A DNA stretch of 64,000 nucleotides from a virus (IMGVR_UViG_3300015608_002119:64001-128000), one strand, 5' to 3'; positions 41,789 to 58,945 are shown, counted from the first letter of the stretch. Made by a program: numbers and translations. The notes: generated by a model from the letters alone, not told the origin.

Positions 41789-42025
41789 TTATGTCAGTTT
41801 ATGCACTATGGCGTTTCGCCAGATATAACCTGCAACGCCGCTTGGCAACAGGACCTTTGCAAAGATCCGGCTCCGAATTGGAACCACCGGCTCAAGTAGC
41901 ATAACTGTTCCGATTACGCAATCGCTATGCAATGCATACTCGCTATCGATGTTAGAGTAACAGCTAACGTCGTTGCCAGCGTTTAGCTCATACAGGTCCC
42001 CAATACGGCCTTCACAGATTAGCAT
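41789..42025 (-). CDS. SH3/KOW-like small beta-barrel family member
   Basis: IGDLY...GTVMLLE...KVLLPSGVAGYI. Confidence 0.6.
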   Translation of the reverse strand: MLICEGRIGDLYELNAGNDVSCYSNIDSEYALHSDCVIGTVMLLEPVVPIRSRIFAKVLLPSGVAGYIWRNAIVHKLT

Positions 42026-42291
42026 ATTCCGTTACTTGGATGTACCGCTGTACGTACCAAATAGTTCCATCCATCAGCATTACCAGTGCCAGTTCCCATG
42101 AAGTGAACGGCATGGTTTTCAGGCCAAGCAACATCATCACTTCGTCGTTGGTTATTATGTTGTGGTTCGTGATGGCGCTTACTACTGTTTACTTGGTAGA
42201 TGTGGACCAAATCGCGATCATAACCCTGCTCGCCGCATGGGCGGTACAGTTTACCAACGACTCCGTCCTTGATGCTCAGCTTTTCGCTCAT
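42012..42291 (-). pseudogene. frameshifted SH3/KOW-like family member
   Basis: MSEK..VVGKLYRP in one frame; NDEVMMLLG...LVMLMDGTIWYV in the +1 frame after about 42190. Confidence 0.6.
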
Positions 42292-42393
42292 GGCGTGATG
42301 ACTGTTTACCGTTGTTGGCGATGATACTAGCACCGGCCAATACAAGTCAAGGATTATTGTCCTAGAGTTATGAGGTGTCCCGGCAAGGCCGTA

Positions 42394-42413
42394 CTTGGTT
42401 ATGTTCCACTAGC
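42394..42413 (+). repeat. 17/20-mer CTTGGTTATGTTCCACT(AGC), copy 3
   Basis: Lies between divergent early promoters. Confidence 0.85.
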
Positions 42414-42439
42414 ATGAGGCATGCCAAGGATTAACTTCC

Positions 42440-42468
42440 TTGACTTAGTTCCCCGTTGGTGGTACTGT
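42440..42468 (+). promoter_or_regulatory. sigma70-type early promoter
   Basis: TTGACT-17-TACTGT with TG extension; ATG 6 nt after the -10; divergent TTGACT on the - strand at 42350-42345. Confidence 0.75.
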
Positions 42469-42474
42469 ACGGAC

Positions 42475-42827
42475 ATGATCGGCTACTACCTGTTCCTCGA
42501 CGACGAGCGCACCCTGGACATGGCGTACGGCCCTCAGGCCGCGGCCCTCAGGCCGAGAGCAAGTTCGCGTACCCGGTGCTTGTTGCCCGTTCGACTGAGG
42601 AGGCCAAGCGTATTGTCGAGAGCGTTGGGTGGCCAACCCATCTGCTCCTCGACCATGATCTCGGCGGAGATGACACGACGATGGTGTTTCTCCGATGGCT
42701 CGCGTACGAGAAGCACGACGGAGAGATCATTCCCGACTACACCATTCACTCGGCCAACCCGGTCGGCGCCAGCAACATCAATGGCTTTATGCGATCGTGG
42801 GCTAGGTCTTGCCATGCCGAAGGATAA
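42475..42827 (+). pseudogene. cyclic-phosphate-processing receiver-domain protein, frameshifted by a 14-nt tandem duplication
   Basis: YLFLDDER in one frame; ARS.EEA..GWP..LDHDLG..HSANPVG..NI in another; deleting one CGGCCCTCAGGCCG copy (42528-42555) fuses them. Confidence 0.85.
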
Positions 42828-43092
42828 CAGGCTGTTACCCCGGCTTGTGCCCGGACAGATGTACAGGTTTGGCGCCAAGCTCGGTTATTCCGTGCTGTAC
42901 GTGCGACTGCATTGGCCGCCCCAAGTACGCGAAGTGACACGGTGGCGAGACGTCTTAGGCGAAGAGTTTATGTACATTGGGCCAGAGCACGAGTCTTCTG
43001 GTGCCGCAATACACAGCTGTCTATTGACAGATGGCGTGCTGGTTTACGTCACAACCACGCAGTTCGAGCTTGCGGACATAACCAAGATCTAA
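42814..43092 (+). CDS. SH3/KOW-like family member
   Basis: LVPGQMYRF...GEEFMYIG...CLLTDGVLVYV. Confidence 0.6.
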   Translation: MPKDNRLLPRLVPGQMYRFGAKLGYSVLYVRLHWPPQVREVTRWRDVLGEEFMYIGPEHESSGAAIHSCLLTDGVLVYVTTTQFELADITKI

Positions 43093-43107
43093 CAAACACC
43101 AAACATC

Positions 43108-43926
43108 ATGAAGAATAGTACACCCAAGCAAACGTACCGGTTTGATGATGACGCTTCGACACCAGCCAACCTCTTCCTGTTGCGCAGAAGCTGTCGTATC
43201 GTGTTGACCGAAGACTGGCAGTTCGAGTTACCCCTGTTCAACAACCATGCAGCACTAGGCGCCATGCACCACGAGGCGCTGTCCGACAGTTTTTACAAAA
43301 TCACTGGCTACTATGACGCTGGGCGGTTCAATCAGTTTGATGCGACCGGAAAGCCACAGACGGTGCCGGTTGTAATTCCTGCTGGTACGGAGTTGCTGAT
43401 CAGTCGCGTTAGTGCTAGGTACGGGGTTCCGAACATTGTGCTCAACTATGACATTGTGAAGTATGTCGATGGGCTACGCGGTCGTACAAAGAAGCAAAGG
43501 ACGCGCGTTTCGATCGAAGTGACAGACGTTGAGTGTGTCACTATGAAGTATAGGCTGATCAGCAGTCCGGACTTTACGTCGCATATCGAACGGCGCAATG
43601 CACACGTCAACAAGTTGCCCACCATCGGCGCCTTGTATACGTTTACGGTTGGTCTAAAGTGTTATGTCTTTAAGTCGACTGGCATACACGAGCTCGCCGC
43701 CAGCGTCGATTATGAACGCGAGCCTTCAACGACTGCATGGCGCGCAGAGCTAGTTGTACCTGCTGGCAGTCGTATGACACTGTTGGCTATGTGGTCTGCG
43801 AAGTTCAATGGACTAGAACGCAGCATGTATGCCTTTCTCCTCCAGGACGGTACCACGGTTAGCATGATGCTGCTCGGCGAACCGAGCAGGTTTATGCGTC
43901 TTGTCGACAAGGAGATAACTCTGTGA
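43108..43926 (+). CDS. two-domain protein with C-terminal SH3/KOW-like family domain
   Basis: IPAGTEL.I; IGALYTF...PAGSRMTLL...FLLQDGTTV. Confidence 0.6.
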   Translation: MKNSTPKQTYRFDDDASTPANLFLLRRSCRIVLTEDWQFELPLFNNHAALGAMHHEALSDSFYKITGYYDAGRFNQFDATGKPQTVPVVIPAGTELLISRVSARYGVPNIVLNYDIVKYVDGLRGRTKKQRTRVSIEVTDVECVTMKYRLISSPDFTSHIERRNAHVNKLPTIGALYTFTVGLKCYVFKSTGIHELAASVDYEREPSTTAWRAELVVPAGSRMTLLAMWSAKFNGLERSMYAFLLQDGTTVSMMLLGEPSRFMRLVDKEITL

Positions 43927-44465
43927 AGTCCAGTGCATCGGAACGATGTCCGGAATGCTATGCCGAAGACCCGTGGAAGAACGAAACGTTTCGTGGTTTT
44001 TTGATCGTTGTCTGCGACGTGTGCGGCTATGCGATGGAAGGGCGCGTAGACGAAGAACTGGATGATGAAGTAGATACCGCAAGTCGCGCTCCTGTTACAC
44101 CGGCCTCTGTAACAGTTCCCGTGCCACCTTCACCTCTGAGTGGTGATCATGCGGACCTAGTGGCGCGCATCATCGACCATTTTCGCGGCACGAATCGTGG
44201 TGTTCGCGCGTTTGTCAACAGGGTCTTCCCTGTTCGTGTGCGCCTTGAAGACTTCATTCACGACCGGTTTGGATCGAGTATACGCATCTTTGATCATGCG
44301 CCACAAGACTACATGGTGACAAGGCTGCTTGAATCCATGGACTCCGACAGGGTGCTGGCCGAAGTTGTAAACTATAGCCCGAGTACGTCAGCTCGTGTAC
44401 TACAAGAGTCGGTTGAGTCCGGTGAGTCTTTCGTGTTGCAAGTCGTGCTACTGTCACATCGATGA
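43923..44465 (+). CDS. hypothetical protein with N-terminal Zn ribbon
   Basis: CPEC...CDVCGY. Confidence 0.55.
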   Translation: MKSSASERCPECYAEDPWKNETFRGFLIVVCDVCGYAMEGRVDEELDDEVDTASRAPVTPASVTVPVPPSPLSGDHADLVARIIDHFRGTNRGVRAFVNRVFPVRVRLEDFIHDRFGSSIRIFDHAPQDYMVTRLLESMDSDRVLAEVVNYSPSTSARVLQESVESGESFVLQVVLLSHR

Positions 44466-44786
44466 CCGCTACGTATCGGCTGGTGCGCAGATGGTCAAGT
44501 CGGCAACAAGAGGGCGATCATCGATGCAGTCGTCGCTGTCATTCCATATCCCGGCTTATGTCATTGCCAGCGCGCTAAGGCATGCACCGACTGGCAATGA
44601 CCGGCACGTTCGAGCATTGGCAACGATAACGGAATGGCTTATGTTAAAGGCGTTGGATAAGCGACAGCGCGATCTGGTTATGACATGGCAGTCTAACGTG
44701 ATGCGTGTCATCAACGAAACTGGACCAACATTTAACGACGATCGGTTTCGTGAGGCCGTGCGGCGCATGTCAACGATTATGATCCC

Positions 44787-44815
44787 TTGACTTTGGTTGC
44801 GCGTCGTGCTAGCAT
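44787..44815 (+). promoter_or_regulatory. sigma70-type early promoter
   Basis: TTGACT-17-TAGCAT with TGC; ATG 7 nt downstream. Confidence 0.75.
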
Positions 44816-44822
44816 AGCGCCT

Positions 44823-45125
44823 ATGCTTCTTTCGACTAACGGCCACATCATCGATGAAGCCGACTGCGTCCTGGTCGGAAAATTGGTCTGACCAATTATC
44901 AATCGGTCTGGACTTCTCCAGTCGCATCTGTACTTCGAGCATGCAGCATATACGACTGCCACTGTTAATCTGAACACAACTGCGCCGCTGCTGCTTTTGG
45001 CGGTTGTGCGGTCGACTACGTCGAATTCAGTATGGTATAAGTTTATGGACTGCAACGGCAACGTCGCCTGGGAATGGTACGGTGGATTAATGCCAGTAAC
45101 CGAACTGCTCCAGCCGGTGCTTTAG
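44823..45125 (+). pseudogene. SH3/KOW-like family member with in-frame TGA at 44889
   Basis: ..LVGKLV*P...APLLLLAVV...YKFMDCNGNVAW; absent from the ORF track. Confidence 0.7.
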
Positions 45126-45128
45126 CAC

Positions 45129-45419
45129 ATGTCCATGAAAGCCAAAAACTTGGTCGGCCGACTCTTCTCTGTAAAGGAAAAGAGCCGAGAGAACGGCTGG
45201 CTATTGTTTCCTGTGATGCGCGGCAATTACGACCACGGCAGCGCTTACAAACAGACAAACGTATGCCTCGCGCCCGGAATGGTCCTGCTTGTTGTCAGGG
45301 TGACCGCGGTCTATGCTGGTTTTCATATAGCGTTCATCAATCAGGAAGGCCAGTGTGGTTGGTTCTTTGTCGCCTCTTCCACGAAAGTCGGGAATTTGTT
45401 CTCGCCGCTCTCGCACTGA
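45129..45419 (+). CDS. SH3/KOW-like family member
   Basis: LVGRLF..WLLFP...PGMVLLVV...FINQEGQCGWF; related to the 54807-56093 subfamily. Confidence 0.7.
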   Translation: MSMKAKNLVGRLFSVKEKSRENGWLLFPVMRGNYDHGSAYKQTNVCLAPGMVLLVVRVTAVYAGFHIAFINQEGQCGWFFVASSTKVGNLFSPLSH

Positions 45420-45437
45420 ACTCCGTCAAGTTACTAC

Positions 45438-45466
45438 TTGACTTTCAAGTCGCGACTTGCTAATGT
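45438..45466 (+). promoter_or_regulatory. sigma70-type early promoter
   Basis: TTGACT-17-TAATGT; ATG 6 nt downstream. Confidence 0.75.
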
Positions 45467-45472
45467 GCGCAC

Positions 45473-45919
45473 ATGTACACCAACCACAGTAGGCGAATGG
45501 AGCTCAACCGGCTGGCATGGAAGCACTGCAAGGCTACCGGTATGGGCTTTTCTGAGTCCGTGGCACTTGTCGGCGAGGTCGAGTCCGGCAAGACAATCCT
45601 CGACCCGGTCGCGGTTCAGGAAGAAGTCGACCGGCTCATCTCCACGCTCCGGCTACACGAGCACTGCAAGGAATGGGTGCGTACGAACGGGTACGCACCG
45701 TATCACGGCTACGCAGACCCGAACTACTTTCCCAAGGAGAAGTGCGAATGTTGTGCCCGACCGCTCGTGTGCGGCACTTCAAGTGCAGGCGAGCACAAGT
45801 ACCGCGAGCTCACTCCTAGCGAGTGCCGAGCGCTCAACATCTACCACGGCGGCAACTGCTACCATGTCTCCAAGTGTGACGTGTGCGGTGATGTCTACGC
45901 GGTAGATTCGTCGGGCTAA
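45473..45919 (+). CDS. hypothetical Cys/His-rich Zn-binding protein
   Basis: CECC..C...H...I.H.G.CYHV..C..CG....DSS. Confidence 0.7.
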   Translation: MYTNHSRRMELNRLAWKHCKATGMGFSESVALVGEVESGKTILDPVAVQEEVDRLISTLRLHEHCKEWVRTNGYAPYHGYADPNYFPKEKCECCARPLVCGTSSAGEHKYRELTPSECRALNIYHGGNCYHVSKCDVCGDVYAVDSSG

Positions 45920-45928
45920 CGGTAAACA

Positions 45929-46207
45929 ATGAGCGCGGTAAAACCATCGTGGCTTACATCGGGCGCCATGGTCACGTTCGCATACACTTGTGACCATGGT
46001 GCGTACACGTACAAGGCCGACCGCCGCGAAGGTCCGTTGTGGAGTATGTTTCGGCCAATCGCAATTGGTGAAGTTGCCATGATTATTGAGTGCCTTGTCG
46101 GGTGGCCCGACAAGTGGACCAACTCAGTAACTCTGTTGATGCATTGCGGTACAGTGATTATTCTTCGCGATGAAGCAGAGGCAGCTTGGTTGCTAGGTCC
46201 ATTATGA
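45929..46207 (+). CDS. SH3/KOW-like family member (PGTLV.F subfamily)
   Basis: GAMVTF...GEVAMII...LLMHCGTV. Confidence 0.65.
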   Translation: MSAVKPSWLTSGAMVTFAYTCDHGAYTYKADRREGPLWSMFRPIAIGEVAMIIECLVGWPDKWTNSVTLLMHCGTVIILRDEAEAAWLLGPL

Positions 46208-46497
46208 GCACAAACTCATACACATGGGCCACCAGACCATCTCCTGGAACCCTTGTCAGGTTTACGTACTCACGAGCGCCGCATTACTTCGACAGTGCAG
46301 GTAAGCGCTGCCATGTAAACGTGAAACAGGGCGAAGTTGCCATGGTTGTTGGTGAGTTTCGCGAACACTACCCGGAAATGCACCCACCGCTTACCATAGA
46401 GGGGCTGCGGTTGATTTTAGGTTGTGGTATGGTGGTGCTGCTCAACAGCAGCGGTACCGGAGAACGGTATGATATCATTGACCTGGAACCACTATGA
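46204..46497 (+). CDS. SH3/KOW-like family member (PGTLV.F subfamily)
   Basis: YTWATRPSPGTLVRF...GEVAMVV...LILGCGMV. Confidence 0.7.
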   Translation: MSTNSYTWATRPSPGTLVRFTYSRAPHYFDSAGKRCHVNVKQGEVAMVVGEFREHYPEMHPPLTIEGLRLILGCGMVVLLNSSGTGERYDIIDLEPL

Positions 46498-46784
46498 GTA
46501 CCAGCTCAGCTCAACATGGGCAACACGACGCGTCCATACCACCCGGAACTCTGGTCCGATTTACGCGTTCTGTTGCCGTCGTAGATGCTGCTAGTGAACG
46601 TTCTGGTGTGTTCGTGTGGCATTACGTCGCGACGGGAGAGACTGCGCTTGTCATCGACTCTCCCCAATAAGTGAATGAAGATGTCCGGATCTGTCTGCTC
46701 CTTGCCAATGGTATTGTCGCGCGGTTAGCGTCCTATGACTATGACCCGAACCTTACCACGCCGCCCGCCTTGGAGCCAGTATGA
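46494..46784 (+). pseudogene. SH3/KOW-like family member with in-frame TAA at 46668
   Basis: PPGTLVRF...GETALVI..Q*...LLLANGIV..LEPV; ATGA-coupled at both ends. Confidence 0.75.
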
Positions 46785-47050
46785 GTAGTAACGACTATAC
46801 ATGGGACACGCGGCCAGCACCCGGAACACTGGTAACGTTTGCACATGATCGGAAGCCATACTACTACAACAATGAAGGGAGGCAGTTTGTAACCGTGCTT
46901 AGTGGAGATGTGGCCATGATACTCGGTTATGGCAAAGAAAGGAACTCGTGCACGTTTCTATTGCTGCGCTGTGGTACGAAAGTGGCACTTGTTACTTATG
47001 ACTATGTCCAATTGGGACTTAAGCCGTTTTCTTCGACTGGGCAGCCATGA
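46781..47050 (+). CDS. SH3/KOW-like family member (PGTLV.F subfamily)
   Basis: YTWDTRPAPGTLVTF...GDVAMIL...LLLRCGT. Confidence 0.7.
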   Translation: MSSNDYTWDTRPAPGTLVTFAHDRKPYYYNNEGRQFVTVLSGDVAMILGYGKERNSCTFLLLRCGTKVALVTYDYVQLGLKPFSSTGQP

Positions 47051-47289
47051 GCAAGGACATTGCGCAGTACACTTGGCTCAGCCCTCCGGCGCCGGGAACC
47101 ATGGTGCGGTTTGTCGACATGCGATTGGTGTATAGCCGCAGTCGGGCGCTGCATGTACAACAAGATGCGTTGGCCATGGTGATTGCGCTATTGCCGACAG
47201 CCAACATTGTTCGATTGCTGCTGGATAGTGGCGTGGTGGTTGAACTTTACTGTTTATGGCCTGAGAAGATGTACCTCAAACCGGTTTGA
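47047..47289 (+). CDS. SH3/KOW-like family member (PGTLV.F subfamily)
   Basis: YTWLSPPAPGTMVRF...LAMVI...LLLDSGVV. Confidence 0.7.
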   Translation: MSKDIAQYTWLSPPAPGTMVRFVDMRLVYSRSRALHVQQDALAMVIALLPTANIVRLLLDSGVVVELYCLWPEKMYLKPV

Positions 47290-47292
47290 GAT

Positions 47293-47460
47293 GTGCACAG
47301 TAAGCGTGTTTTGGACGTCGAGGCGGGAGAGCCGATGATGGTAACCGGTTATGGCAGTACCAACGCCGCCGCATGGATCAACCTGATTTTGAGTTGTGGA
47401 ACGCTAGCAAAGCTGTTTTGCGGCAACAGCGGGACGTTGCTGCGTATTGAGCCGGTCTGA
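47293..47460 (+). pseudogene. N-terminally truncated SH3/KOW-like family member
   Basis: LDVEAGEPMMV...LILSCGTL...IEPV. Confidence 0.55.
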
Positions 47461-47461
47461 C

Positions 47462-47848
47462 ATGCAATCACCAGCCGACATCGTGCAGGACCAGTGGCCC
47501 GATTACCAGTCATGGAAGAGGGTAGTCTACCTGTCTGACATACAGGTCGGGTCGCTGTATGTCGCGACAGTCACCAACCTAACACATGGCATCTACGCAG
47601 GCTCCAGCTTGCTCGTGCTGGTTGCTGGTGCTGATGCCGTGTACCCGTCTAGCACGGCAGACAGCTTTTATTTTCGTCTAACCGCGCTGCACACACCGCC
47701 GCGAAAGTCCTGGTTTCCGATGCGAGCATCTGATGCCAGTGTCATAAACCTTGTGACAAGATACCACGGGCACATGACACACTGGGAGTCGTGCCCGTTC
47801 ATGATCGACCATCTGGTACTGGTACCGACTGTTACAACACGGCCGTAA
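47462..47848 (+). CDS. hypothetical protein, probable divergent SH3/KOW-like member
   Basis: IQVGSLY...AGSSLLVL. Confidence 0.5.
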   Translation: MQSPADIVQDQWPDYQSWKRVVYLSDIQVGSLYVATVTNLTHGIYAGSSLLVLVAGADAVYPSSTADSFYFRLTALHTPPRKSWFPMRASDASVINLVTRYHGHMTHWESCPFMIDHLVLVPTVTTRP

Positions 47849-47943
47849 AGGCGCCTAGGCGCCCGTCTAGTGCCCGATCTTTTCCGGGACTGGTTCCTGG
47901 CCGTCCGAGACATTTACAGGCTCAAAACGGGCGCCTGTTAATT
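47846..47943. repeat. 98-bp dispersed element, copy E
   Basis: Ungapped alignment with copies at 4681 and 59309; fills the gap between convergent genes. Confidence 0.85.
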
Positions 47944-47948
47944 CTAGG

Positions 47949-49248
47949 TCATGTGCCGAGCTCAATCCACGTCAACGCAACGGTAATTTCTGATGTGCTG
48001 CTGGCAGCTTTCGCGACGATCGTCTGACTGTCGCCGGGAGAGATATAGAAGTCCTGGTAATCTCCTTCGAGCTCCTCACGCAAGTCCGCGTTTGCACCGA
48101 CGGCGGCAGACCACACCATCCTGCCACCGGAGAACGCCGTTGCTGACGTGTCAATCTGGGCCAGGGTTGTTGCGTTGTCAACATCAAACCAGTTCGCATC
48201 GTTGCTTAGCGCGCCACCCGCCATGAGCCTTATTTCAGCACCCGGCGTGCCATTCGCGATTGAGATACGCAGCAGGGTTAGCTCTGAGTTGGACTTGAGC
48301 GACTTGCTGGTGTCTGACGCTACGATCTTGGATCGTGGGTTCATGATGGACATCAGCGGCACAAACCCGCTGCTTGCGACGCCGGTCTTGGCGACGGAAT
48401 AGGCCCGTTTTGGTCCTAGGTTACGGCGCTTCCCCAGCAGCACGCCACCAATCTGAAACAGGCTGGATGTAATGTCCGTAGTGCTACCGAGTGATTGTAG
48501 CTCAGACCTAAACGGCTGCGAAAAGTTCTCGATAACGTTGTGGGTTGCGTTGCCGCCAACCTGCATGATATGTACAAGGTTATACTCCGTGGCGCTATCA
48601 ACACCGCTGCCAGAAGGCTTCTGTACCAGCAGCTTTGCGGTGCCGTTTGGACACAGATAAATCTGGTATGAGTTGAACAGTGTCGGTTGCAGCAGTAGAC
48701 CGCTTGGATTGAACAGGCTGTTGCTGCCGTCCATCGTGTCATGTGACCAGTTTGATTGTGATGTAAACGTTTCCGTTGGAGCGCCGCCGCCGTGATAGGT
48801 CGCAAAGGTGCCATCAACCGTCCCGCCAACAATTGAAAACGATCCAGGTGTTGTCGGCACCGCCTTCTCGCCAGCAAAGTACACGACACTCCCAGAAGTC
48901 CAGCTGGACCACCCAATCCCAGCGGAGCTGTACGCGCCTGCGGCTATTTCGTTTGCCGTCTTGATTGTGGATGCGTTGTTGGTTACTGGCACAGATATGG
49001 CAGTGCCATTCAGTGTTGATGATGTCAACAGATCCAGTTACATCTCTTCCGAACAGGAGCGATCCGGTCTGGAAAGGGTTGGTTGCGAACGATATCGAGC
49101 CGGAGAATGTCGTGTCGCCACGGATGTTGACATCTTTTGTGAACAGCGTCTTAAGCTCGACAGTAACAGGGAACTCTGAGTCGTTGAGGTCAAGCTGCTG
49201 AATGACCCCACGGTCTCCGACTGTCGTCTTTACTTGTTGTGTTGGCAC
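47949..49248 (-). pseudogene. virion-type structural protein split by a +1 frameshift near 49015-49030
   Basis: MPTQQVK...VTGSVDII in one frame continues as TLNGTAISVPVT...ALTWIELGT in another; Ser/Thr/Gly-rich. Confidence 0.6.
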
Positions 49249-49726: not shown

Positions 49727-49728
49727 AC

Positions 49729-50067
49729 ATGAGCGGCGATGGCATCCGATCGAACCAAGCTGTTCCTGGCTCACTGTGGAGGCTCAAACAGCCTGCCTGT
49801 GAAAACCTAAAGCAAGCCCGTGGTATTTTCCGGCGCCCAGCTAGTGAACCCTGGGAACAACAAGGCTGGAACCGCGGCTGGGAGCGGACCGCAGCCATCG
49901 CGCGCTGGAGATATGATATCAGTAGCCGTTGGCTGTTGATCAGTGTCACGTCTTTGGTGTCGTCGGCAGTCTGCGACTGCCAGTTCATGTTACCCAACGG
50001 GCAGTTGACTTTGGTTCGGTTCGACGCCGACACAAACATGGCAGACTGTCTTGAGCTCGTCGAATAA
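49729..50067 (+). CDS. SH3/KOW-like family member (LLPNG subfamily)
   Basis: VPGSLWRLK...WLLI...QFMLPNGQL. Confidence 0.65.
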   Translation: MSGDGIRSNQAVPGSLWRLKQPACENLKQARGIFRRPASEPWEQQGWNRGWERTAAIARWRYDISSRWLLISVTSLVSSAVCDCQFMLPNGQLTLVRFDADTNMADCLELVE

Positions 50068-50389
50068 CACAAAACCAGACCTGACACCGGGTACACTGTG
50101 GCGTCTCAAGGTTTCGTGCTGCAATTACGCCGAAGCAGTCGACTTGATGTGCATGAGCTATGATGCTGTTGATATCCTAAACGGTTGTGGGCAAGTGTGG
50201 ACGTATCGTGCTGGTACGCCATGCATGTTGGTACAAGCTACTATTGTTAAGCAGGATCCCGAGAAGACAAGGTATCAGTTCCTGCTGCCAAATGGCATGC
50301 TAGCAGAAACACATCTCACCAAAGAGCAGTTTGTTGACTGTTTCGACGTCAAACCAATCTCTACAAAGGACGTGACACGTGGGAGCTGA
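50051..50389 (+). CDS. SH3/KOW-like family member (LLPNG subfamily)
   Basis: TPGTLWRLK...AGTPCMLV...YQFLLPNGML. Confidence 0.65.
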   Translation: MSSSNNTKPDLTPGTLWRLKVSCCNYAEAVDLMCMSYDAVDILNGCGQVWTYRAGTPCMLVQATIVKQDPEKTRYQFLLPNGMLAETHLTKEQFVDCFDVKPISTKDVTRGS

Positions 50390-50629: not shown

Positions 50630-51019
50630 GTGGCACGGGCCATAGGCGAGTGCCACGACGCTGGCTGTGTTACGTTTAGCGATGTCATCTTGTCGCTTTA
50701 CACGTGTCCTTACTGGGCAACGACCTACGACTGCGACATGCCCGATGACTGGCTCGACGAGTTTTTGAGGCCAGTGCACCACGGCGGCGCCTACTATGGA
50801 GGCTGGGCTTCACATCACTGGCGTTCACGTTTCCTGAAGCAGTTTCAGGCGCTCTCATGGGAAGATGACATCGAACCAAAACTGTTGTCTGGGCCTTTGG
50901 CGTCGTTCTACGCAATGCGAATCGACGACTGGTTCGTTGAATTGTCAAAGACGGTGGAAGGTGCTTGGGTCGACGGGTACTATGTCATCGATGTGGACTA
51001 CAGGGAAACGTGGACATGA
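50630..51019 (+). CDS. hypothetical protein
   Basis: Ends ETWT with ATGA overlap to the next gene. Confidence 0.5.
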   Translation: MARAIGECHDAGCVTFSDVILSLYTCPYWATTYDCDMPDDWLDEFLRPVHHGGAYYGGWASHHWRSRFLKQFQALSWEDDIEPKLLSGPLASFYAMRIDDWFVELSKTVEGAWVDGYYVIDVDYRETWT

Positions 51020-51246
51020 TTACCCCAGGAAAACTGTTCAAGGTCGAGTCCCGTTTTAGCTACAGGAGCGGCGCGCACCGCTACTACAAAATCGAACCAG
51101 GAGAGGTGGTTATGATATTGTCGTGCGTATTGGGCTACGAGTCAGAACGTGAGGTATACGAACAATCCCTCCTGCTACCAAACGGAGACGTCTGCTCGTA
51201 TCTGATCACAGCCAACACGTTCGCAGAGCTGTTCACCCCGTTCTGA
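51016..51246 (+). CDS. SH3/KOW-like family member (LLPNG subfamily)
   Basis: TPGKLFKV...PGEVVMIL...LLLPNGDV. Confidence 0.7.
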   Translation: MITPGKLFKVESRFSYRSGAHRYYKIEPGEVVMILSCVLGYESEREVYEQSLLLPNGDVCSYLITANTFAELFTPF

Positions 51247-51279: not shown

Positions 51280-51522
51280 GTGAGCGAAGCTGAGACCATT
51301 ATTCCTGGTATACTGCTTATGGTAAAGGCCGGGTTCAGATTCAAGGGCCATGTCCTGTTCGTTGACGACATGATCATGGTGATAGAGCACTTTGAGTCCC
51401 GCAATACCATCTACAATTGCAAGATTTACTACCAAACCATCTTGCTGCCAAATGGTGAAGTCGGTTCCTTTGAGTTAGATGAGAGATCGTTTTGGCATGT
51501 CTTTGAAGCGTGTTCATTCTAA
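51280..51522 (+). CDS. SH3/KOW-like family member (LLPNG subfamily)
   Basis: IPGILL.V...DDMIMVI...ILLPNGEVG. Confidence 0.65.
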   Translation: MSEAETIIPGILLMVKAGFRFKGHVLFVDDMIMVIEHFESRNTIYNCKIYYQTILLPNGEVGSFELDERSFWHVFEACSF

Positions 51523-51558: not shown

Positions 51559-51900
51559 TTGTCATTACCAAGCAACGACAGCAACGCCACCATCCAATCC
51601 ATCGACGACTTGGTTGGCAAGATGTATATTGTGCGCCACTACGCGCTGCTGCACGCGCCAGGGGCCATCGAACATGTCACGGCAGGTACACGCTTGCTCT
51701 TGCTGGACATCAACATTGAGTGGCGCGATGTCACCAATGATCTAGATGCGCGTGTGACGGTTTACTTCAAGTTAATGTTGCCGTCGGGCAACATCGCTTG
51801 GTGGATCCACCAGACCATGTTGGAGACAGAGCTGGAGATCAGACATCAAGCGCTTCTGAGATTCTTGGAGTGGGCCGGGCCGATATCGGAACTCGGCTGA
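51559..51900 (+). CDS. SH3/KOW-like family member
   Basis: LVGKMY...AGTRLLLL...LMLPSGNIAW. Confidence 0.65.
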   Translation: MSLPSNDSNATIQSIDDLVGKMYIVRHYALLHAPGAIEHVTAGTRLLLLDINIEWRDVTNDLDARVTVYFKLMLPSGNIAWWIHQTMLETELEIRHQALLRFLEWAGPISELG

Positions 51901-51943: not shown

Positions 51944-51950
51944 TACTGGT

Positions 51951-52390: not shown

Positions 52391-52415
52391 CTTGCACAGC
52401 AAGCCACACTACAGT
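52387..52415 (+). promoter_or_regulatory. sigma70-type early promoter
   Basis: TTGACT-17-TACAGT. Confidence 0.7.
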
Positions 52416-52506
52416 ACGAGTCACCAGCAAGGCGGCGCAGCGTAAGCAACATCTATCACCGCCAGCACACACGCAACATCACTCAAGAAAGGGTAATGGT
52501 TTCAAC

Positions 52507-52971: not shown

Positions 52972-53057
52972 GCTGTAACGGTCGAACGGTTCCGGCCGTC
53001 ACCGGCGCCGTGTCCGCGGAGCTCTCTGACTCGCACATGTACTGACAACATAATGCC

Positions 53058-53357
53058 ATGACTAACAGTGCCGCGGTTCGGTTTGAGGTTGGAGAGCTAT
53101 ATATGCTCTCACCCGACAGTTCGCGTCGCTGCTATTACCTTTACAACAGCCGCCATGGCGACGTCAACGTTAAACGCGGCGAGCCATTCCTGGTGATCGA
53201 ACTTGTAGTCTGGTACGGCGGACCAGCAACGATGGTATGCAATGCTCACGGCGATACTGGTTTGATCGATCTTACCGATGTCGCAAACGATGGGCAGCCA
53301 GCCTTCGTGCCTTGTGTCAGCGAACGACAACAGCAGGCCAGTCGTGTGCAAGCCTAA
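53058..53357 (+). CDS. SH3/KOW-like family member
   Basis: FEVGELY...RGEPFLVIE...VCNAHGDTGLI. Confidence 0.7.
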   Translation: MTNSAAVRFEVGELYMLSPDSSRRCYYLYNSRHGDVNVKRGEPFLVIELVVWYGGPATMVCNAHGDTGLIDLTDVANDGQPAFVPCVSERQQQASRVQA

Positions 53358-53601
53358 TAACATTACAGTCCGGAAGCTGTACATGTTTCCCGTGTTTCCC
53401 ATCACAACCCCACGGCTTCCGTATGCGCTTTATGGCAGCGCCGCTTCCGTTTATCCCGGCGAACCGTTCATGGTGAGTAAGACCAACTGCCAGTATAAGC
53501 ATTTATATACTATGGTTATGGTGTGCAATGTTCGTGGTGAGCTTGGCCTAGTATACCCATTGCCAGATATTGTGCCATACGACATGGCCAGCCAGAAATA
53601 A
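53344..53601 (+). CDS. SH3/KOW-like family member
   Basis: KLYMF...PGEPFMV...VCNVRGELGLV; paralog of 53058. Confidence 0.65.
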   Translation: MCKPNNITVRKLYMFPVFPITTPRLPYALYGSAASVYPGEPFMVSKTNCQYKHLYTMVMVCNVRGELGLVYPLPDIVPYDMASQK

Positions 53602-53606
53602 ACCAC

Positions 53607-53636
53607 TTGACTTCTGTTCGGCGCGCATGGTAGGTT
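53607..53636 (+). promoter_or_regulatory. sigma70-type early promoter
   Basis: TTGACT-18-TAGGTT with TGG; ATG 7 nt downstream. Confidence 0.7.
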
Positions 53637-53643
53637 CTTACAC

Positions 53644-54810
53644 ATGAACCACCAGACGCAGTACGCGCACCCGGCCCTCCTGATCCCGTTCGACGAGCTC
53701 TACGCTGGTCTTGAGGCTTGTGTTGCGGCCGGGGACGTGGATCGTCGGACACCCTCCGATGGCGACGATGATTCGGGCCTCGTTCTCTACAACTACAACG
53801 AGACGTGCCAGTTCGAGCGGCGCTGGAACAAGTACAACTGGCTGGCACGAGGGCTTGTTCTTCGGCCCTCAGAGAAGGAGATTGTCGCCCTCTGTATGCC
53901 CAAGTTCTTCAACGTGACCGAGCCCGAGGCGCCGTCGATCCATAACGGTGACGAGTACGAGGCAACGACGAAGCTCGACGGGAGCTGCGGGATCGGGTTT
54001 CACGACCGGGGCGAATGGCATGTTGCGACCCGCGGCTCGTTCTCGTCCGATCAGGCCGTATGGGCGACGAACTACCTGCGCGCCCATGCCGGTTTCATGG
54101 CGTACCTTGACCCGGACGTGACGTACATCACCGAGATCATCTATCCCGAGAACCGGGTCGTGATCAAGTACGACTTCGCAGACTTGGTGCTGCTTACCGG
54201 GTACAACAGGAAGACTGGCCACGAGCTTGATTACGTATCCGAGCTGGTGCCACTGTCACACCGGATTGGCTGCCGCGTCGCGGATCGTCACTTCTTCTCG
54301 TCCTTGCAGGAGCTTCTGGCTGTTGCGAAGGCGCTCCCTGGTACGCAGGAGGGGTTCGTTCTACGCCTCAAGGGCTCCGGTGACCGGGCCAAGGTGAAGG
54401 GTGACCAATACAAGATCATTCACAAGATGATCTCCCAGGTGACCCCGCTTGGAATCTACGAGCTCATGCTGGAAGGTAAGCCTATCGAGGAGTCCAAGCG
54501 CCTGATTCCGGAGGAGTTTTACGACGACTTCGATACGATCGTCAGACTGCTCGGTGAAAAGGTCGACCGGATCATCGACGGCACGAACGAGCTCGTGCAG
54601 TCCGTGGCGTATATGTCCGACAAGGAGGTTGGGCTGGCGATGAGTACGTTTGGGGAGTTTGGGCAGTACGTGTTCACGGCGCGCAAGAAGGGCCAAGATG
54701 CACTGCGTCTCATCGCCCTCAAGGCAGTCCGTCCGACGGGCAACCGGCTCGACGGGTACCACACCTCGATCGCGATGAACCGGGTCTTTACCTCTTCCTC
54801 GGAAGGGTGA
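53644..54810 (+). CDS. RNA ligase (T4 Rnl1-like)
   Basis: LYNY, ARGLV, PKFFN, KLDGS (motif I), ATRGSF, EIIYPENR.V, EGFV, KVK. Confidence 0.9.
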   Translation: MNHQTQYAHPALLIPFDELYAGLEACVAAGDVDRRTPSDGDDDSGLVLYNYNETCQFERRWNKYNWLARGLVLRPSEKEIVALCMPKFFNVTEPEAPSIHNGDEYEATTKLDGSCGIGFHDRGEWHVATRGSFSSDQAVWATNYLRAHAGFMAYLDPDVTYITEIIYPENRVVIKYDFADLVLLTGYNRKTGHELDYVSELVPLSHRIGCRVADRHFFSSLQELLAVAKALPGTQEGFVLRLKGSGDRAKVKGDQYKIIHKMISQVTPLGIYELMLEGKPIEESKRLIPEEFYDDFDTIVRLLGEKVDRIIDGTNELVQSVAYMSDKEVGLAMSTFGEFGQYVFTARKKGQDALRLIALKAVRPTGNRLDGYHTSIAMNRVFTSSSEG

Positions 54811-55145
54811 GTGGCGCCATGATTCTCGAACCGGGAAAGCTGTATCGGATTAGTCGGCACTTTTGGTACTTGTTCCCGACAAGTGAGCGCGCCGTCGAAT
54901 CATATGTTGCTGTCGCGGATACTGCCGCTGACGCTAGCATTGGTGCGGATTTTGCCTCCCGCAGAATTAAACAGTCAAACAACAAGGTAACCTTCATGAA
55001 CGAAGGAGAAGGCTTCCTTGTTGTTGAGGTGTCTGGCACTCAAGTCAAAGTAATCAACCAAGAAGGGAAGAGTGGCTGGATAAATTTTCCTGCAACTCAG
55101 AGTTGGACCAAAGACACGATCACCGAGATTTCCAGTGACCTTTGA
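54807..55145 (+). CDS. SH3-like variable-loop protein, copy 1
   Basis: EPGKLYRI..FW.LFPT-[variable]-VTF.NEG...VVEV...VKVINQEGKSGWINFPA..W. Confidence 0.85.
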   Translation: MSGAMILEPGKLYRISRHFWYLFPTSERAVESYVAVADTAADASIGADFASRRIKQSNNKVTFMNEGEGFLVVEVSGTQVKVINQEGKSGWINFPATQSWTKDTITEISSDL

Positions 55146-55476
55146 GCCAGGAAAACTCTTCAAGATCAACGAATACTTCTGGTTGCTGTTTCCAACGAAG
55201 GAAACAGCCGCCGCCCGCCCTCTCCCCCGCGCCGGTCATGCCGCCGATGCCGCCTTCGCAGATTCCGCCTCCGCCGTGGGCTGGGCTTCCTATTGGTCGA
55301 AGCAGCTAGATTGCACCGTTTCCTTCATAAGTGAAGGAGACACAATCATGATTGTTGAAGTTTTTGATATTCAAGTCAAAGTAATCAATCAAGAAGGAAA
55401 AGGCGGTTGGATTAATTTTCCTGCCGATAAACCTTGGAACAAAGGCACTATCACCGAGATCTCCAATGATATTTGA
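55135..55476 (+). CDS. SH3-like variable-loop protein, copy 2
   Basis: Same framework; 26-codon GC-rich insert at 55207-55284. Confidence 0.85.
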   Translation: MTFEPGKLFKINEYFWLLFPTKETAAARPLPRAGHAADAAFADSASAVGWASYWSKQLDCTVSFISEGDTIMIVEVFDIQVKVINQEGKGGWINFPADKPWNKGTITEISNDI

Positions 55477-55783
55477 ACCCGGCAAACGATACCGAATTAG
55501 CCGGTACTCATGGTTTCTGTTTCCTTCGTTGGAAACAGCCACCATCCCCTCCAACGCCTGCGCCGCGCGCGTGCTCGGCCCCGCCGCCATGGCTTCCTAT
55601 TGGTCCAAGCAACTAAACTGCGACGTCTCCTTTCTGAATGAAGGAGACGTTATCATGGTTGTTGAAATCACCGGCATTCAAGTAAAAGTAGTCAATCAGG
55701 AAGGACAAAGCGGCTGGATCAACTTTCCGGCCGATGAAGCGTGGACCGAAGATACAATTACTGAGATCTCCAATGATGCTTGA
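55466..55783 (+). CDS. SH3-like variable-loop protein, copy 3
   Basis: Same framework; 18-codon insert at 55538-55591. Confidence 0.85.
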   Translation: MIFEPGKRYRISRYSWFLFPSLETATIPSNACAARVLGPAAMASYWSKQLNCDVSFLNEGDVIMVVEITGIQVKVVNQEGQSGWINFPADEAWTEDTITEISNDA

Positions 55784-56093
55784 GCCCGGAAAGCTCTATA
55801 AGATCAACGAATGGTGCTGGCTCCTGTTCCCTACGAAGAAAGCCGCCGTTATCGGGTCCGGGATCGATCCTGGCCCACGTACGACCATCAACTACTACGT
55901 TTCCTATTGGTCAAAAGAGCTTAACTGCACTGTTTCTTTACTGGATAAGGGAGATATTTTTATGGTTGTCAAGATCTCCAATTATCAAGTTGCAGTAATC
56001 AATCAACAGGGAAAGAGTGGTTGGATTAATTTTCCTGCTGATGAAGAGTGGGCCGGACGCTGCATTGTGGCATGTGACGCGCGCCCACCTTGA
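55773..56093 (+). CDS. SH3-like variable-loop protein, copy 4
   Basis: Same framework; 18-codon insert at 55845-55898. Confidence 0.85.
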   Translation: MMLEPGKLYKINEWCWLLFPTKKAAVIGSGIDPGPRTTINYYVSYWSKELNCTVSLLDKGDIFMVVKISNYQVAVINQQGKSGWINFPADEEWAGRCIVACDARPP

Positions 56094-56113
56094 CAATTCC
56101 GCCGACGTTCGAC

Positions 56114-56143
56114 TTGACTTTGTCGACGCTGCTGTGCTAACAA
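56114..56143 (+). promoter_or_regulatory. sigma70-type early promoter
   Basis: TTGACT-18-TAACAA with TGC; ATG 7 nt downstream. Confidence 0.6.
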
Positions 56144-56150
56144 GAAATCC

Positions 56151-56438
56151 ATGGCAACACATCATACGTGGATCATTACGTCCGATCGTGGCGAAGTTCA
56201 TACCGTCTGGACACGCGACAAGCACGACTGGATCAGCGACTACTCGGACGCGACAGCCGTAGTAGGTGCTTTCGCTACCTTCACGTACGCCAGCCGCATG
56301 CAACACACATACTCGTGCAACGAGGTATGTGCGTCATCAGACGACGGCGCGGCCGAGCATATGGCGCATCAGAACGCGGTCCTTCTTCTCTTGGAGGAAA
56401 ATGGGATTGAACCTGTCGATGTGCGCCGCTCGCCTTAA
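56151..56438 (+). CDS. hypothetical protein
   Basis: ORF between two promoters. Confidence 0.6.
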   Translation: MATHHTWIITSDRGEVHTVWTRDKHDWISDYSDATAVVGAFATFTYASRMQHTYSCNEVCASSDDGAAEHMAHQNAVLLLLEENGIEPVDVRRSP

Positions 56439-56483
56439 TTTCGCTTGACTTCTGGCGGCTCATACAGCAAACTCGGACTTGCT

Positions 56484-57173
56484 ATGGATAAGCTCGTCGT
56501 CGGCCACTTCTCGGACAATCATGGTCAGGTGCCATACCGTGACCTAAACATCGAGCTGCCAGACGTTTGGGTTTGCAGTGGAGACTTCTTTCCGAACAGC
56601 ACGAGAGGCGTTGCAGACCGAGAAGTGGCATTCCAGAGGAGCTGGTATCGCAACAAGGCCAACAGCCTTTACTGGTGGTCGTTCAAGGGTAACGTTTCAC
56701 CAGCTCAGCGGTTTATGGAGTTCTTCGGCGGCGTTCCGGTGCTTGTGGTTCATGGCAACCACGACTTTGCGAACCTCGTGGACCTTTTGCAAGAGGATTG
56801 TTATCCGGCATTCGAGGTTCCGGAGACCGGCATGGACTACGAGGGCCTGCGCTGGGCTGGCGCTAGACATATTCCGTGGATTGCTGGGGAGTGGAACGGA
56901 GAGCTCCGCGCCAATGACATTTCGCGTGTGATGTCTGATGTGTTTGATACAGACCCGGACGTTCTCGTGACGCACGTGCCACCGCACGGGATCTTATCGA
57001 ACATGTACGGCTGTAACGCACTGGCGAACTGCTTTGCTTACCGCACACACAAGATCAAGACGCACATGTTTGGGCACGTGCATGAGCAGGGAGGCCAGAC
57101 CACAACGATTAACGGCGTGCTGCACAGCAACGCGGCCTGCAACCTCAACTACGTGATCATCGAGCGGCCATGA
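56484..57173 (+). CDS. calcineurin-like metallophosphoesterase
   Basis: SDNHG, GDF, GNHD, THVPP, FGHVHE. Confidence 0.9.
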   Translation: MDKLVVGHFSDNHGQVPYRDLNIELPDVWVCSGDFFPNSTRGVADREVAFQRSWYRNKANSLYWWSFKGNVSPAQRFMEFFGGVPVLVVHGNHDFANLVDLLQEDCYPAFEVPETGMDYEGLRWAGARHIPWIAGEWNGELRANDISRVMSDVFDTDPDVLVTHVPPHGILSNMYGCNALANCFAYRTHKIKTHMFGHVHEQGGQTTTINGVLHSNAACNLNYVIIERP

Positions 57174-57553
57174 GTAAACAGAAGACAGAGGCTAAGTTAC
57201 ACAAGTCAATTGAGCAAGAGCTGATTGCGTACTTTCGTGTTGGTGGCATATACAAGTCAGTCGGATCTGCACGCTGGGTCTTGTATGCAAATTCAACCGA
57301 TGTCAACTGGTATCGATTCGTGCTGCACGACGAATTAATTCCGAATGCATGTCGCACACAAGAAACATTTATGGTGCTTGAGGAATGGCGTCATCTAGGC
57401 ACACATGCACGTGCGCCTCCTAGTGGTTCGCTGCGCGTGCTCGCTGGCAATGGCATGACTGGCTACTTGCTGATTGCCGGTGGCGTCACAAAGGCCGGTC
57501 GCAACGGATTGAAACCATGGTCTGACGCTGCTCGGTTTGAGCGCATTGCATGA
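57170..57553 (+). CDS. SH3/KOW-like family member
   Basis: FRVGGIY...ETFMVLE...LRVLAGNGMTGYL. Confidence 0.6.
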   Translation: MSKQKTEAKLHKSIEQELIAYFRVGGIYKSVGSARWVLYANSTDVNWYRFVLHDELIPNACRTQETFMVLEEWRHLGTHARAPPSGSLRVLAGNGMTGYLLIAGGVTKAGRNGLKPWSDAARFERIA

Positions 57554-57580
57554 CCGGCCGGACTGGACAACAATAACCGG

Positions 57581-57609
57581 TTGACTTTAGCATCCCGGCC
57601 TGCTAGACT
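57581..57609 (+). promoter_or_regulatory. sigma70-type early promoter
   Basis: TTGACT-17-TAGACT with TGC. Confidence 0.75.
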
Positions 57610-57647
57610 CCGTCAAGTAGCACTGAACCTCAACACAGGAGCGGCCG

Positions 57648-57914
57648 ATGGAGAATGAGAGCGAGTACAGGTACGTGGTGGAGCTCAACGACGGTGCCCG
57701 GTTCTCGTCGTACACCTTTGACAAGGCGTTCGGTGTCGCTTCGGGGGTGAACCCTCCGCGGCCGATCATCAAGGTGCATCGGATCACTGGCATCGTCAAG
57801 CAGGTATGGCAGCCGTCGAAGGTGCCAGTGCTCGACATCGACTGCCTCGTTCCGACGATCAACGTGAACTCCGAAGGCGAAGAGGAGGACGTGGTTTATG
57901 ACTGCGAGTGCTGA
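57648..57914 (+). CDS. hypothetical protein
   Basis: AGGAG ribosome-binding site; GC3-rich ORF. Confidence 0.65.
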   Translation: MENESEYRYVVELNDGARFSSYTFDKAFGVASGVNPPRPIIKVHRITGIVKQVWQPSKVPVLDIDCLVPTINVNSEGEEEDVVYDCEC

Positions 57915-58296
57915 TGACAGCCTGCGCTGCGCGATCGACCGGGAACGTGAGAGGATGCGCGCGATGGGTCGCGTTCTGATCGAATACTGCAACCTGCCGG
58001 TCACGGGTAACCTGCTGATCAACGGCGGTCTTCGATTGGTTGATGAGCAGACCGGCCGGTACAGGTTTGCCGCGGCGATGGACGAGGGTGAGGCGGCATT
58101 CAAGATCGCCACAACGGCAGCGCTGGCAGAGGAGTACCTGGATTCAGGCCGTGCGAGTGATATGCTTGGTTACGGTGCCATCTATCACCTTGAGAACGCT
58201 GAGTCCATGGTGATGCGGCTTGTCGATGGCATGTGTGGTGATGACACCGATCGGTACCTGAGCGCACTGCACGAGATCCGCCCGCCCGCTGAGTGA
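57898..58296 (+). CDS. hypothetical protein
   Basis: GGAGG ribosome-binding site; coupled ORF. Confidence 0.6.
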   Translation: MTASADDSLRCAIDRERERMRAMGRVLIEYCNLPVTGNLLINGGLRLVDEQTGRYRFAAAMDEGEAAFKIATTAALAEEYLDSGRASDMLGYGAIYHLENAESMVMRLVDGMCGDDTDRYLSALHEIRPPAE

Positions 58297-58559
58297 TCGT
58301 CGTGCCACATAATACCGAGCCAACACCGGTTGCTATCATCAAGCAGCGCTTGGAGCGCGAGCAGATGATTCGGCTGCTAACTGAGCTTGTCAATAGCTCA
58401 AGTGACACGGAGAGCTGCTCTCCTGGTCCTCCAAGCACATATACCTACTGCATACACTGCAAGGGCCGCTGGCCATGCAAGAACACAAGGACGTGTGTTG
58501 TTGGTAAGGCAGCACTGCTGCTTAAGCAGCTGACCGGCCATATGGACAGCACACGCTGA
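58293..58559 (+). CDS. small Cys-containing hypothetical protein
   Basis: YCIHC...C.V..A. Confidence 0.5.
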   Translation: MIVVPHNTEPTPVAIIKQRLEREQMIRLLTELVNSSSDTESCSPGPPSTYTYCIHCKGRWPCKNTRTCVVGKAALLLKQLTGHMDSTR

Positions 58560-58561
58560 TA

Positions 58562-58945
58562 ATGAACGAGGCCGATATCATGCAGTCAGACACATCGGTA
58601 CGACGCTGCTTTGAGCCTGGGAAGCTCTATAGGATCGACCGATGGTTTTGGCTTCTGTTTCCAACAAAGGAAACAGCCGCCGCCGCTGCCGCAGCCACCC
58701 GCGCCTCCGCCGCCGCGCTCACCCGCGCCTCCGCCGCCGCCTCTTGGGCTTCCTATTGGTCAAAAGAACTGAATTGCAATGTCTCCTTCATGAGTAAAGG
58801 AGACATTTTGATGGTTGTTGAAGTTGCCGGTGAACAAATGAAAGTTATCAGCCAAGAAGGAAAGAGCGGTTGGATAAACTTTCCTGCCGGTGAGGAATGG
58901 ACGAAGAATGCCATCGTTGAATCCGCCAAAGGCGTCCTAAACTAG
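58562..58945 (+). CDS. SH3-like variable-loop protein, copy 5 (dispersed)
   Basis: Same framework as 55135; 24-codon Ala-rich insert at 58676-58747 with an internal 24-nt-period repeat. Confidence 0.85.
   Translation: MNEADIMQSDTSVRRCFEPGKLYRIDRWFWLLFPTKETAAAAAAATRASAAALTRASAAASWASYWSKELNCNVSFMSKGDILMVVEVAGEQMKVISQEGKSGWINFPAGEEWTKNAIVESAKGVLN

Follow-up and report, generated by a model that had tools for sequence, protein, structure and literature searches.

Poxviruses encode ankyrin and Bcl-2-like protein families, also referred to as 'genomic accordions', in which one binding fold is directed against host factors and evolves by birth and death. In SH3 domains, the RT and n-Src loops form the ligand-binding face, and in the eukaryotic representatives these two loops set peptide specificity. 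Among phages, the small accessory and early genes are for the most part without an assigned function. The nearest published parallel that we found to the system described here is the expansion in Bacillus phage G, which carries ~35 copies of a zinc ribbon whose function has been inferred only (Iyer et al., 2021, PMC7824862). Here, we focus on a 17-kb stretch (positions 41789-58945) of the uncultured virus IMGVR_UViG_3300015608_002119, in which a single small stand-alone domain has undergone a lineage-specific expansion. In both identity and fold, the family proteins very probably form a branch of the bacterial SH3 (SH3b) clan, divergent and stand-alone, with a five-stranded barrel. Gene positions are given in the numbering of the window, that is, the whole 64,000-nucleotide stretch that was analysed (bases 64001-128000 of one 163,485-bp virus record), unless they are marked as genome positions.

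The likeness to phage G lies in one small domain having been multiplied tens of times within one phage lineage. Unlike the zinc ribbons, however, the family described here has another fold, is distributed clade-wide among uncultured phages and comes in two architectures, with a hypervariable cassette. It resembles the poxvirus families as a repertoire of one binding fold and in its birth-and-death evolution, but its duplicates are ancient, with saturated synonymous divergence (dS), and are not recent amplifications. With the bacterial SH3b domains (PF08239), including the wall-binding domains of NlpC/P60 proteins, lysostaphin and endolysins, the family shares the five-stranded barrel, a G..GW motif and a G-D-x-V-x-V-L strand. 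In contrast to the lysin SH3b domains, the phage members stand alone, without a catalytic partner or secretion signal, and they further differ from bacterial SH3b domains by occurring in 30-48 copies per phage genome and, in the long form, by a helical hypervariable insertion in the RT loop. The resemblance to eukaryotic SH3 domains (Pex13/PAS20) comprises a G-K-L-Y motif, which corresponds to the ALYDY strand, and variation at the RT and n-Src loops, whereas the origin here is prokaryotic or viral and the likeness rests on register and not on the set of PxxP-binding aromatic residues. One recognisable binding fold fills more than one third of the 17-kb stretch and accounts for 30 to 48 genes per genome in an uncultured giant-phage clade, and dozens of 'hypothetical proteins' become one testable class of small, putatively cytoplasmic SH3-type binders.

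An earlier note on this DNA had assigned 26 genes of the stretch to one family. All of these open reading frames (ORFs) are present where the note had placed them; 21 are firm members by profile or pairwise statistics, three are probable members and two (42012 and 51951) are unsupported. An all-versus-all BLASTP comparison of every ORF of at least 40 aa in the 163-kb record yielded three cores, namely the INQEG.GW type with 13 genes (six in the window), the YTW type with three and the LLPNG type with two. Iteration of a profile hidden Markov model (HMM) expanded the YTW core to 15 genes, and a bridging gene, g144748, matches both the INQEG profile (E 1e-11) and the YTW profile (E 2e-20). With the loci of relatives added, HMM iteration converged at 102 fragments, 27 of which come from this genome, and the converged superfamily HMM joins the long and short forms of the protein with the genes at 53058, 57170 and 41789. 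The sole minus-strand match of this HMM is 41789, a genuine minus-strand gene, and shadow frames are therefore not being collected. Furthermore, all 18 sub-threshold matches (E 0.006-1.5) fall in the same accessory region, each of them on the plus strand. A 95-member profile, A4, used in an independent six-frame search, returned 30 matches in the 163-kb record, and at least 12 further firm copies lie beyond the window. In two related uncultured contigs, a 260-kb IMG/VR contig and a 65.6-kb contig, the A4 profile found 40 and 48 matches, respectively, within arrays that are denser than here and all on one strand, and these numbers bear out the earlier description of the expansion as large. Firm family genes cover 36% of positions 41789-58945, or 41% if the probable members are included.

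The remaining candidates were evaluated with hhalign, phmmer and 1000 composition-preserving shuffles each, with unclaimed neighbours serving as controls (p at least 0.02 in the shuffles). Used with a profile dominated by relatives, hhalign under-detects true YTW members (12% for 47047 and 10% for 47293), and a low hhalign value alone is thus not grounds for rejection. Two candidates were rejected: with the two HMMs, the score of 42012 was reached by 420 and 10 of 1000 shuffles, and that of 51951 by 246 and 368 of 1000.

Scans of viral and metagenome contigs revealed distant relatives only, with 30-40% identity and intact frames. The A4 profile had no match in the three nearest GenBank phages, and DNA and protein searches of GenBank phages gave no match to the region or to any family member, leaving the record without a near relative there. 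A search of the published literature returned no description of such a family.

The fold was assessed with predicted structures of the two largest subfamilies. The AlphaFold2 (AF2) model of the long-form protein 55135, built from 31 sequences, has a predicted local distance difference test (pLDDT) value of 83.7 and displays the barrel strands together with helices at residues 22-58, and that of the short-form protein 46781 (44 sequences; pLDDT 88.5) is all beta. Both predicted models contain the five strands, the partly open barrel and the RT, n-Src and distal loops of an SH3-like barrel, and the structures that they match best are barrels of the SH3, SH3b, KOW and Tudor types. In Foldseek searches against the PDB, nearly all matches of both models are SH3 domains (probability 0.9-1.0, E ~0.1), and VIA-align, which is independent of Foldseek, gave Z scores of 6.2 and 7.1 for the two models to the SH3b domain of 2evr_A. 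Neighbours common to both models are 4krt_B, 3e1s_A, 3fc3_A, 1k9a_A and 3g1j_B; structural neighbours in BFVD are uncharacterised small phage proteins. The proposal that one fold is reused is borne out, since the SH3-barrel models of the two largest subfamilies match the same PDB chains and HMM iteration ties the subfamilies together; unrelated folds among the subfamilies were not seen in the predicted structures.

At the sequence level, SH3_3 is the sole Pfam family that matches more than one short form (seven of 44, relatives included, at E <=1; best 3.6e-5), and the short-form profile A2 aligns in the correct register with the Pex13 SH3 domain in the PDB (E 0.008). Searched against 1.84 billion representatives, the A4 profile found 998 proteins at E <=1e-3, most of them stand-alone and 80-140 aa in length, and the long proteins among these matches are multi-SH3_3 lysozyme or CHAP proteins. 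The same profile matches the proteins P0038, P0043, P0047, P0051, P0055 and P0116 (E 3e-27 to 7e-13) in 4-11 stretches each, and all six are SH3_3 repeat proteins according to Pfam (E 1e-76 to 1e-159). Neither Pfam KOW or Tudor nor Pfam DUF7244, a stand-alone SH3 family from Drexlerviridae, matched any of ten window members or 44 short forms at E <=1. In the PHROGs, none of the 95 profile members found a match at E <=0.01, and ten window members gave chance-level values only (E at least 0.2). The label 'KOW-like', by which the earlier note had described the genes, is accordingly not favoured, because the sequences are akin to bacterial SH3 (SH3_3) and KOW domains are mid-ranking structural neighbours only (Z 4.3-5.4).

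The family has two architectures: the short form (70-113 aa) is a bare barrel, and the long form (105-127 aa) is a barrel with a ~45-residue helical insertion at the SH3 RT loop. Information content is highest in three scaffold motifs, G-K-L-Y, D-x-I/V-hydrophobic-V-L-E (with F/M at the hydrophobic position) and K-V/I-L-x-x-x-G-x-x-G-W, the last being, in a narrower form, K-V/I-L-T-x-x-G-x-I/V-G-W. Three insertion hot spots follow profile positions 12 (up to 9 aa), 25 (up to 35 aa) and 47 (up to 9 aa), and in the register of classical SH3 domains they correspond to the RT and n-Src loops. In the long form, the RT-loop insert includes an Ala/Pro/Arg-rich hypervariable cassette, which precedes a conserved helix (S-Y-W-S-K). 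Amino-acid identity among long-form paralogs is 0.10-0.18 in the cassette and 0.5-0.8 elsewhere.

Nei-Gojobori estimates for the framework of eight long-form paralogs gave a nonsynonymous divergence (dN) of 0.2-0.5, a dS of at least 1 (often saturated) and a dN/dS of 0.11-0.29. The copies are therefore old and held by purifying selection, and recent amplification is not indicated. Three copies are damaged, either by a nonsense codon (46494 and 44823) or by truncation (47293); copies are gained and lost over time, and the surviving ones are old. The earlier characterization of the genes as fast-evolving thus applies to the loops and the cassette, but not to the conserved scaffold or to the age of the duplicates.

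As to function, 96 of the 102 members contain no hydrophobic 19-residue window, and in the other six such a window is situated in core strands and never at the N-terminus. The members begin straight at the first barrel strand, without a leader, and their pI values range from 4.4 to 9.8, most being acidic or neutral. We infer that the proteins are soluble and cytoplasmic. Taken as a whole, the statement that an SH3b-related expansion provides a repertoire of cytoplasmic binders is, in our judgement, evenly poised between right and wrong; the part that concerns the repertoire, a putative set of small intracellular binding modules, we put forward tentatively, as something short of an even chance. 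Each copy would bind a different macromolecule in the infected cell, be it a host defence factor, a housekeeping factor or a phage partner, with the variable loops giving each copy its own target, and the repertoire would provide small inhibitors or adaptors with which the phage takes over the host or counters its defences. A binder or counter-defence library is a reasonable inference of this kind. Should the members prove to bind proteins of host defence or housekeeping, they would represent a rich source of natural inhibitors and, with their two variable loops, a compact scaffold of natural origin.

On the proposed mechanism, the host RNA polymerase would transcribe at least the first arrays early, using promoters of the sigma-70 type. 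A conserved element, consisting of YCYTTGACT, a spacer of 16-18 nt, TANNNT (often GATAAGGT) and an ATG 6-7 nt further on, occurs in 15 plus-strand copies in the genome, most of them at genome 138-163 kb (L001/L002). One sigma-70-like element of this type, at 42437-42468 on the plus strand (TCCTTGACT, 17 nt, TACTGT, 6 nt, ATG), heads the plus-strand block before the cREC_REC gene. A second, at 44784-44815 on the plus strand (CCCTTGACT, 17 nt, TAGCAT), ends 7 nt before the ATG of 44823 and stands at the head of the array at 44.8-47.5 kb; it is a single match against 0.03 expected in the pattern search and was found by the consensus scan too. The geometry of the element suggests leaderless early mRNAs, and the T4-type late promoter TATAAATA is practically absent. 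In the arrays without the element, the genes are closely packed, and stops overlap with starts.

A number of points weigh against an SH3b-related repertoire of early-expressed binders. The fold scores are moderate (Foldseek E ~0.1, Z below 8), such as barrels of ~60 residues usually give, and both AF2 models were built on alignments that presume homology. In Pfam, ten window members gave no SH3_3 match at E <=1, so that no window member comes near the 27-bit Pfam gathering score; with these sub-Pfam scores and no PHROG, the family is filed in the SH3 clan, as neither PF08239 proper nor KOW. A generic sigma-70 scan returned 17 sites against 12 +/- 3.4 expected, which is no enrichment, and the other arrays have no recognisable promoter element, so that only two arrays possess one. 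Of the early promoters that had been proposed for the whole family, the elements at 42437 and 44784 remain, and early transcription is thus plausible for part of the family only. Residues 32-36 of the long-form model have pLDDT values below 50, and the variability of the loops could reflect relaxed constraint on disordered linkers. Moreover, ancient duplicates with a conserved scaffold give no sign of a current genome-wide arms race.

Alternatively, the proteins could be regulators that bind nucleic acids, RNA polymerase or ribosomes, in the manner of KOW, Tudor or CarD-like domains, and thereby modulate transcription, translation or RNA repair in the phage or its host. Their structural neighbours include the KOW domains of NusG/Spt5, CarD/CdnL, the Tudor domain of RNA polymerase-bound UvrD and the SH3 domains of RecD2/Pif1/Dda, the arrays are interleaved with genes for an RNA ligase, a phosphoesterase and cREC_REC, and the pI values of 4.4-9.8 extend from acidic through basic. 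However, most members have a pI in the acidic or neutral range, Pfam gave no KOW or Tudor match, the sequences are akin to SH3_3 and classical SH3 domains, and 30-50 distinct regulators of this sort would be without precedent. We therefore regard this explanation as unlikely, although not strikingly so.

The closest annotated sequence relatives of the family are the SH3_3 repeats of lysozyme- or CHAP-containing cell-wall hydrolases, and among the best structural matches are 2evr_A and 4krt_B, SH3b domains that come from NlpC/P60 enzymes and from a phage endolysin. Both observations would suit envelope- or glycan-binding modules, directed at peptidoglycan or a surface polysaccharide, that take part in lysis or superinfection exclusion or serve as detachable subunits for targeting. 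Such a function is nonetheless distinctly unlikely, given that the members have no signal peptide or membrane segment and no catalytic fusion (longer fused forms were searched for and not found, although this is weak evidence), that the genes reside in accessory arrays and not beside a lysis cassette, and that 30-48 copies are hard to square with wall binding.

The structural module lies directly upstream of the arrays (window 5-37 kb), as might be expected for virion-associated proteins that decorate the capsid or tail or are packaged internally and injected with the DNA; this is highly improbable for a family whose members have no leader, whose genes are found outside that module and of which 0 of 95 members match any PHROG, structural or other. 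That most of the genes have no function, being duplicates or over-called ORFs of a region that is decaying and prone to repeats, as the two nonsense pseudogenes, the truncated copy and a frameshifted neighbouring gene could suggest, is scarcely credible and is contradicted by the framework dN/dS of 0.11-0.29, by the conservation of the family with intact frames in relatives at 30-40% identity and by a profile that yields essentially no shadow-frame matches.

Within the proposed repertoire of intracellular binders, the long-form INQEG.GW proteins may in addition be actively diversified, with a fixed SH3 scaffold on which the RT-loop cassette is rewritten at a high rate, but we consider this quite unlikely. 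The database ortholog P0014 is 99% identical to the copy at genome 135716 (L001:7716-8042) outside the cassette; within the cassette, P0014 cannot be aligned with that copy and is nine residues longer. At the protein level, orthologs from other samples (P0014, and P0005 compared with 58562-58945) have scaffolds that are 99-100% identical and cassettes that are wholly different and of other lengths. Just 5' of the cassette, three long-form copies carry a perfect 7-bp hairpin (TGTTTCC, loop, GGAAACA), at 55187-55206, 55517-55536 and 58656-58675, and where the first copy has the loop AACGAA, the second has its reverse complement, TTCGTT, whereby the residues T-K become S-L. Rewriting could proceed by slippage or template switching at this conserved hairpin, or by exchange of cassettes between paralogs. 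The 163-kb record, which is ~44% complete according to CheckV, contains no match to the reverse transcriptase family RVT_1, and the cassette is GC-rich and variable in length, unlike the product of adenine-directed mutagenesis by diversity-generating retroelements. In windows of synonymous identity across eight paralogs of this genome, divergence beside the cassette is not reduced, and there is thus no sign of recent gene conversion among them. Should active diversification prove true, the phage population would possess shifting binding specificities and an antibody-like scaffold that functions without a reverse transcriptase.

Along the stretch, all members are encoded on the plus strand except the first, a short-form gene of the LLPSG type on the minus strand at 41789-42025 (78 aa; superfamily HMM E 5e-9; A4 E 1.7e-8), whose hhalign probability of 95% was obtained with a profile that includes the gene itself. 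At 42814-43092, a probable remote member of 92 aa scores 11.1 bits with the YTW HMM (reached by 0 of 1000 shuffles, and by 5 of 1000 with the superfamily HMM); its hhalign probability is 6% only, though in the correct register. A probable SH3-like domain, supported by 0 of 1000 shuffles with both HMMs, is encoded at 43618-43926 and constitutes the C-terminus of the 272-aa protein at 43108-43926, which may contain more than one SH3-like unit. As a lead only, the ESM Atlas structural neighbours of this plus-strand gene's product are multi-SH3_3 proteins, at template-modelling scores of 0.27-0.36 and with a low-confidence model.

The array at 44.8-47.5 kb opens with a probable family pseudogene (44823-45125) interrupted by an in-frame TGA at 44889-44891, in which the part after the stop matches A4 (E 0.0067); hhalign gives 38%, and its scores were reached by 14 and 0 of 1000 shuffles with the two HMMs. 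Next to it, an INQEG.GW-type gene with a shortened insert (45129-45419, 96 aa) belongs to the BLASTP cluster and matches the INQEG HMM (E 1.7e-16). A short-form gene of 92 aa at 45929-46207 matches both the YTW HMM (E 1.9e-21) and the LLPNG HMM (E 3e-32), and the adjoining short form at 46204-46497 (YTW..PGTLV, 97 aa) is supported by its BLASTP cluster and an HMM E of 6e-26. The YTW-type pseudogene at 46494-46781 (hhalign 88%) has an in-frame TAA at 46668-46670, and its two halves, read in one frame, align with consecutive parts of the HMM, namely positions 1-48 (E 1.3e-10) and positions 55-75 (sub-threshold alone, E 0.17). It is followed by the modelled YTW short form at 46781-47050 (89 aa; HMM E 1.5e-26; AF2 pLDDT 88.5, with SH3 matches), by a further YTW short form at 47047-47289 (80 aa; BLASTP cluster; HMM E 3e-23) and by an N-terminally truncated copy at 47293-47460 (55 aa), which covers only HMM positions 30-83 (YTW HMM E 4e-13).

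Further downstream, the short form at 49729-50067 is a paralog of 50051 (phmmer E 5e-4 between them; 0 and 3 of 1000 shuffles), which in turn is a short form of the LLPNG type with 112 aa (50051-50389; YTW HMM E 2.4e-20; A4 E 7.5e-10). Two more LLPNG short forms, at 51016-51246 (76 aa; HMM E 1e-38) and 51280-51522 (80 aa; HMM E 5e-30), are a BLASTP pair. The MLPSG-type short form at 51559-51900 (113 aa) reaches an hhalign probability of 90% (E 1.6e-6) with the gene outside the profile, and an E of 2.7e-6 against the A4 profile, which was built after 51559 had been added. The GEPF..VCN type comprises the short form at 53058-53357 (99 aa; superfamily HMM E 1e-7; A4 E 3.2e-8) and its paralog at 53344-53601 (85 aa; phmmer against 53058 E 4e-4; 3 of 1000 shuffles with both HMMs).

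The long forms begin at 54807-55145 with an INQEG.GW gene that carries the helical RT-loop insert (BLASTP cluster; HMM E 3e-45), followed by the modelled gene at 55135-55476 (HMM E 6e-51; AF2 pLDDT 83.7, with SH3 matches; 35 database homologues) and by those at 55466-55783 (HMM E 1e-46) and 55734-56093 (likely start 55776; HMM E 3e-45). A divergent member with an N-terminal extension is encoded at 57170-57553 (127 aa; superfamily HMM E 2.6e-8; A4 E 6e-7), and the stretch closes with the long form at 58562-58945, which has an Ala-rich cassette (HMM E 4e-51).

The record as a whole encodes a contractile-tail baseplate, an RNA ligase, a phosphoesterase, RNR, DnaB and RecA, and the nearest records to its baseplate wedge protein, at 28-32% identity, are Flavobacterium phage immuto, Microcystis phage Mel-JY01 and an uncultured 484-kb phage. 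The genes interleaved with the SH3-like arrays include the RNA ligase (53644-54810; phrog_562, E 8e-48), the metallophosphoesterase (56445-57173) and the cREC_REC (cyclic-phosphate processing receiver) gene on the plus strand (42475-42827), and these surroundings suggest an RNA-repair or accessory neighbourhood. The cREC_REC gene is broken by a frameshift: its N-terminal part, with L-F-L-D-D-E-R, is in one frame, and Pfam positions 16-87 are in another (42456-42827, E 2.6e-14). Between the two parts, a 13-14-bp tandem duplication contains GGCCCTCAGGCCG twice (42529-42555).

Further features were recorded in and around the stretch. A 359-aa ORF at 47949-49028 lies on the minus strand, opposite to the plus-strand block in which it is embedded; its putative product is Ser/Thr/Gly-rich and had no match in Pfam. 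The 17-nt motif CTTGGTTATGTTCCACT, usually with a CT-rich tract 5' of it, occurs in eight genome copies, including those at 14878, 36838 and 42394, and the last of these (42394-42410, plus strand) occupies the divergent gap where the plus-strand block starts. At the end of the record (L002:18985-19480; genome 162985-163480), a tandem repeat with a period of 15 bp and multiples thereof contains 13 copies of a GGAGCGAACCTG core.

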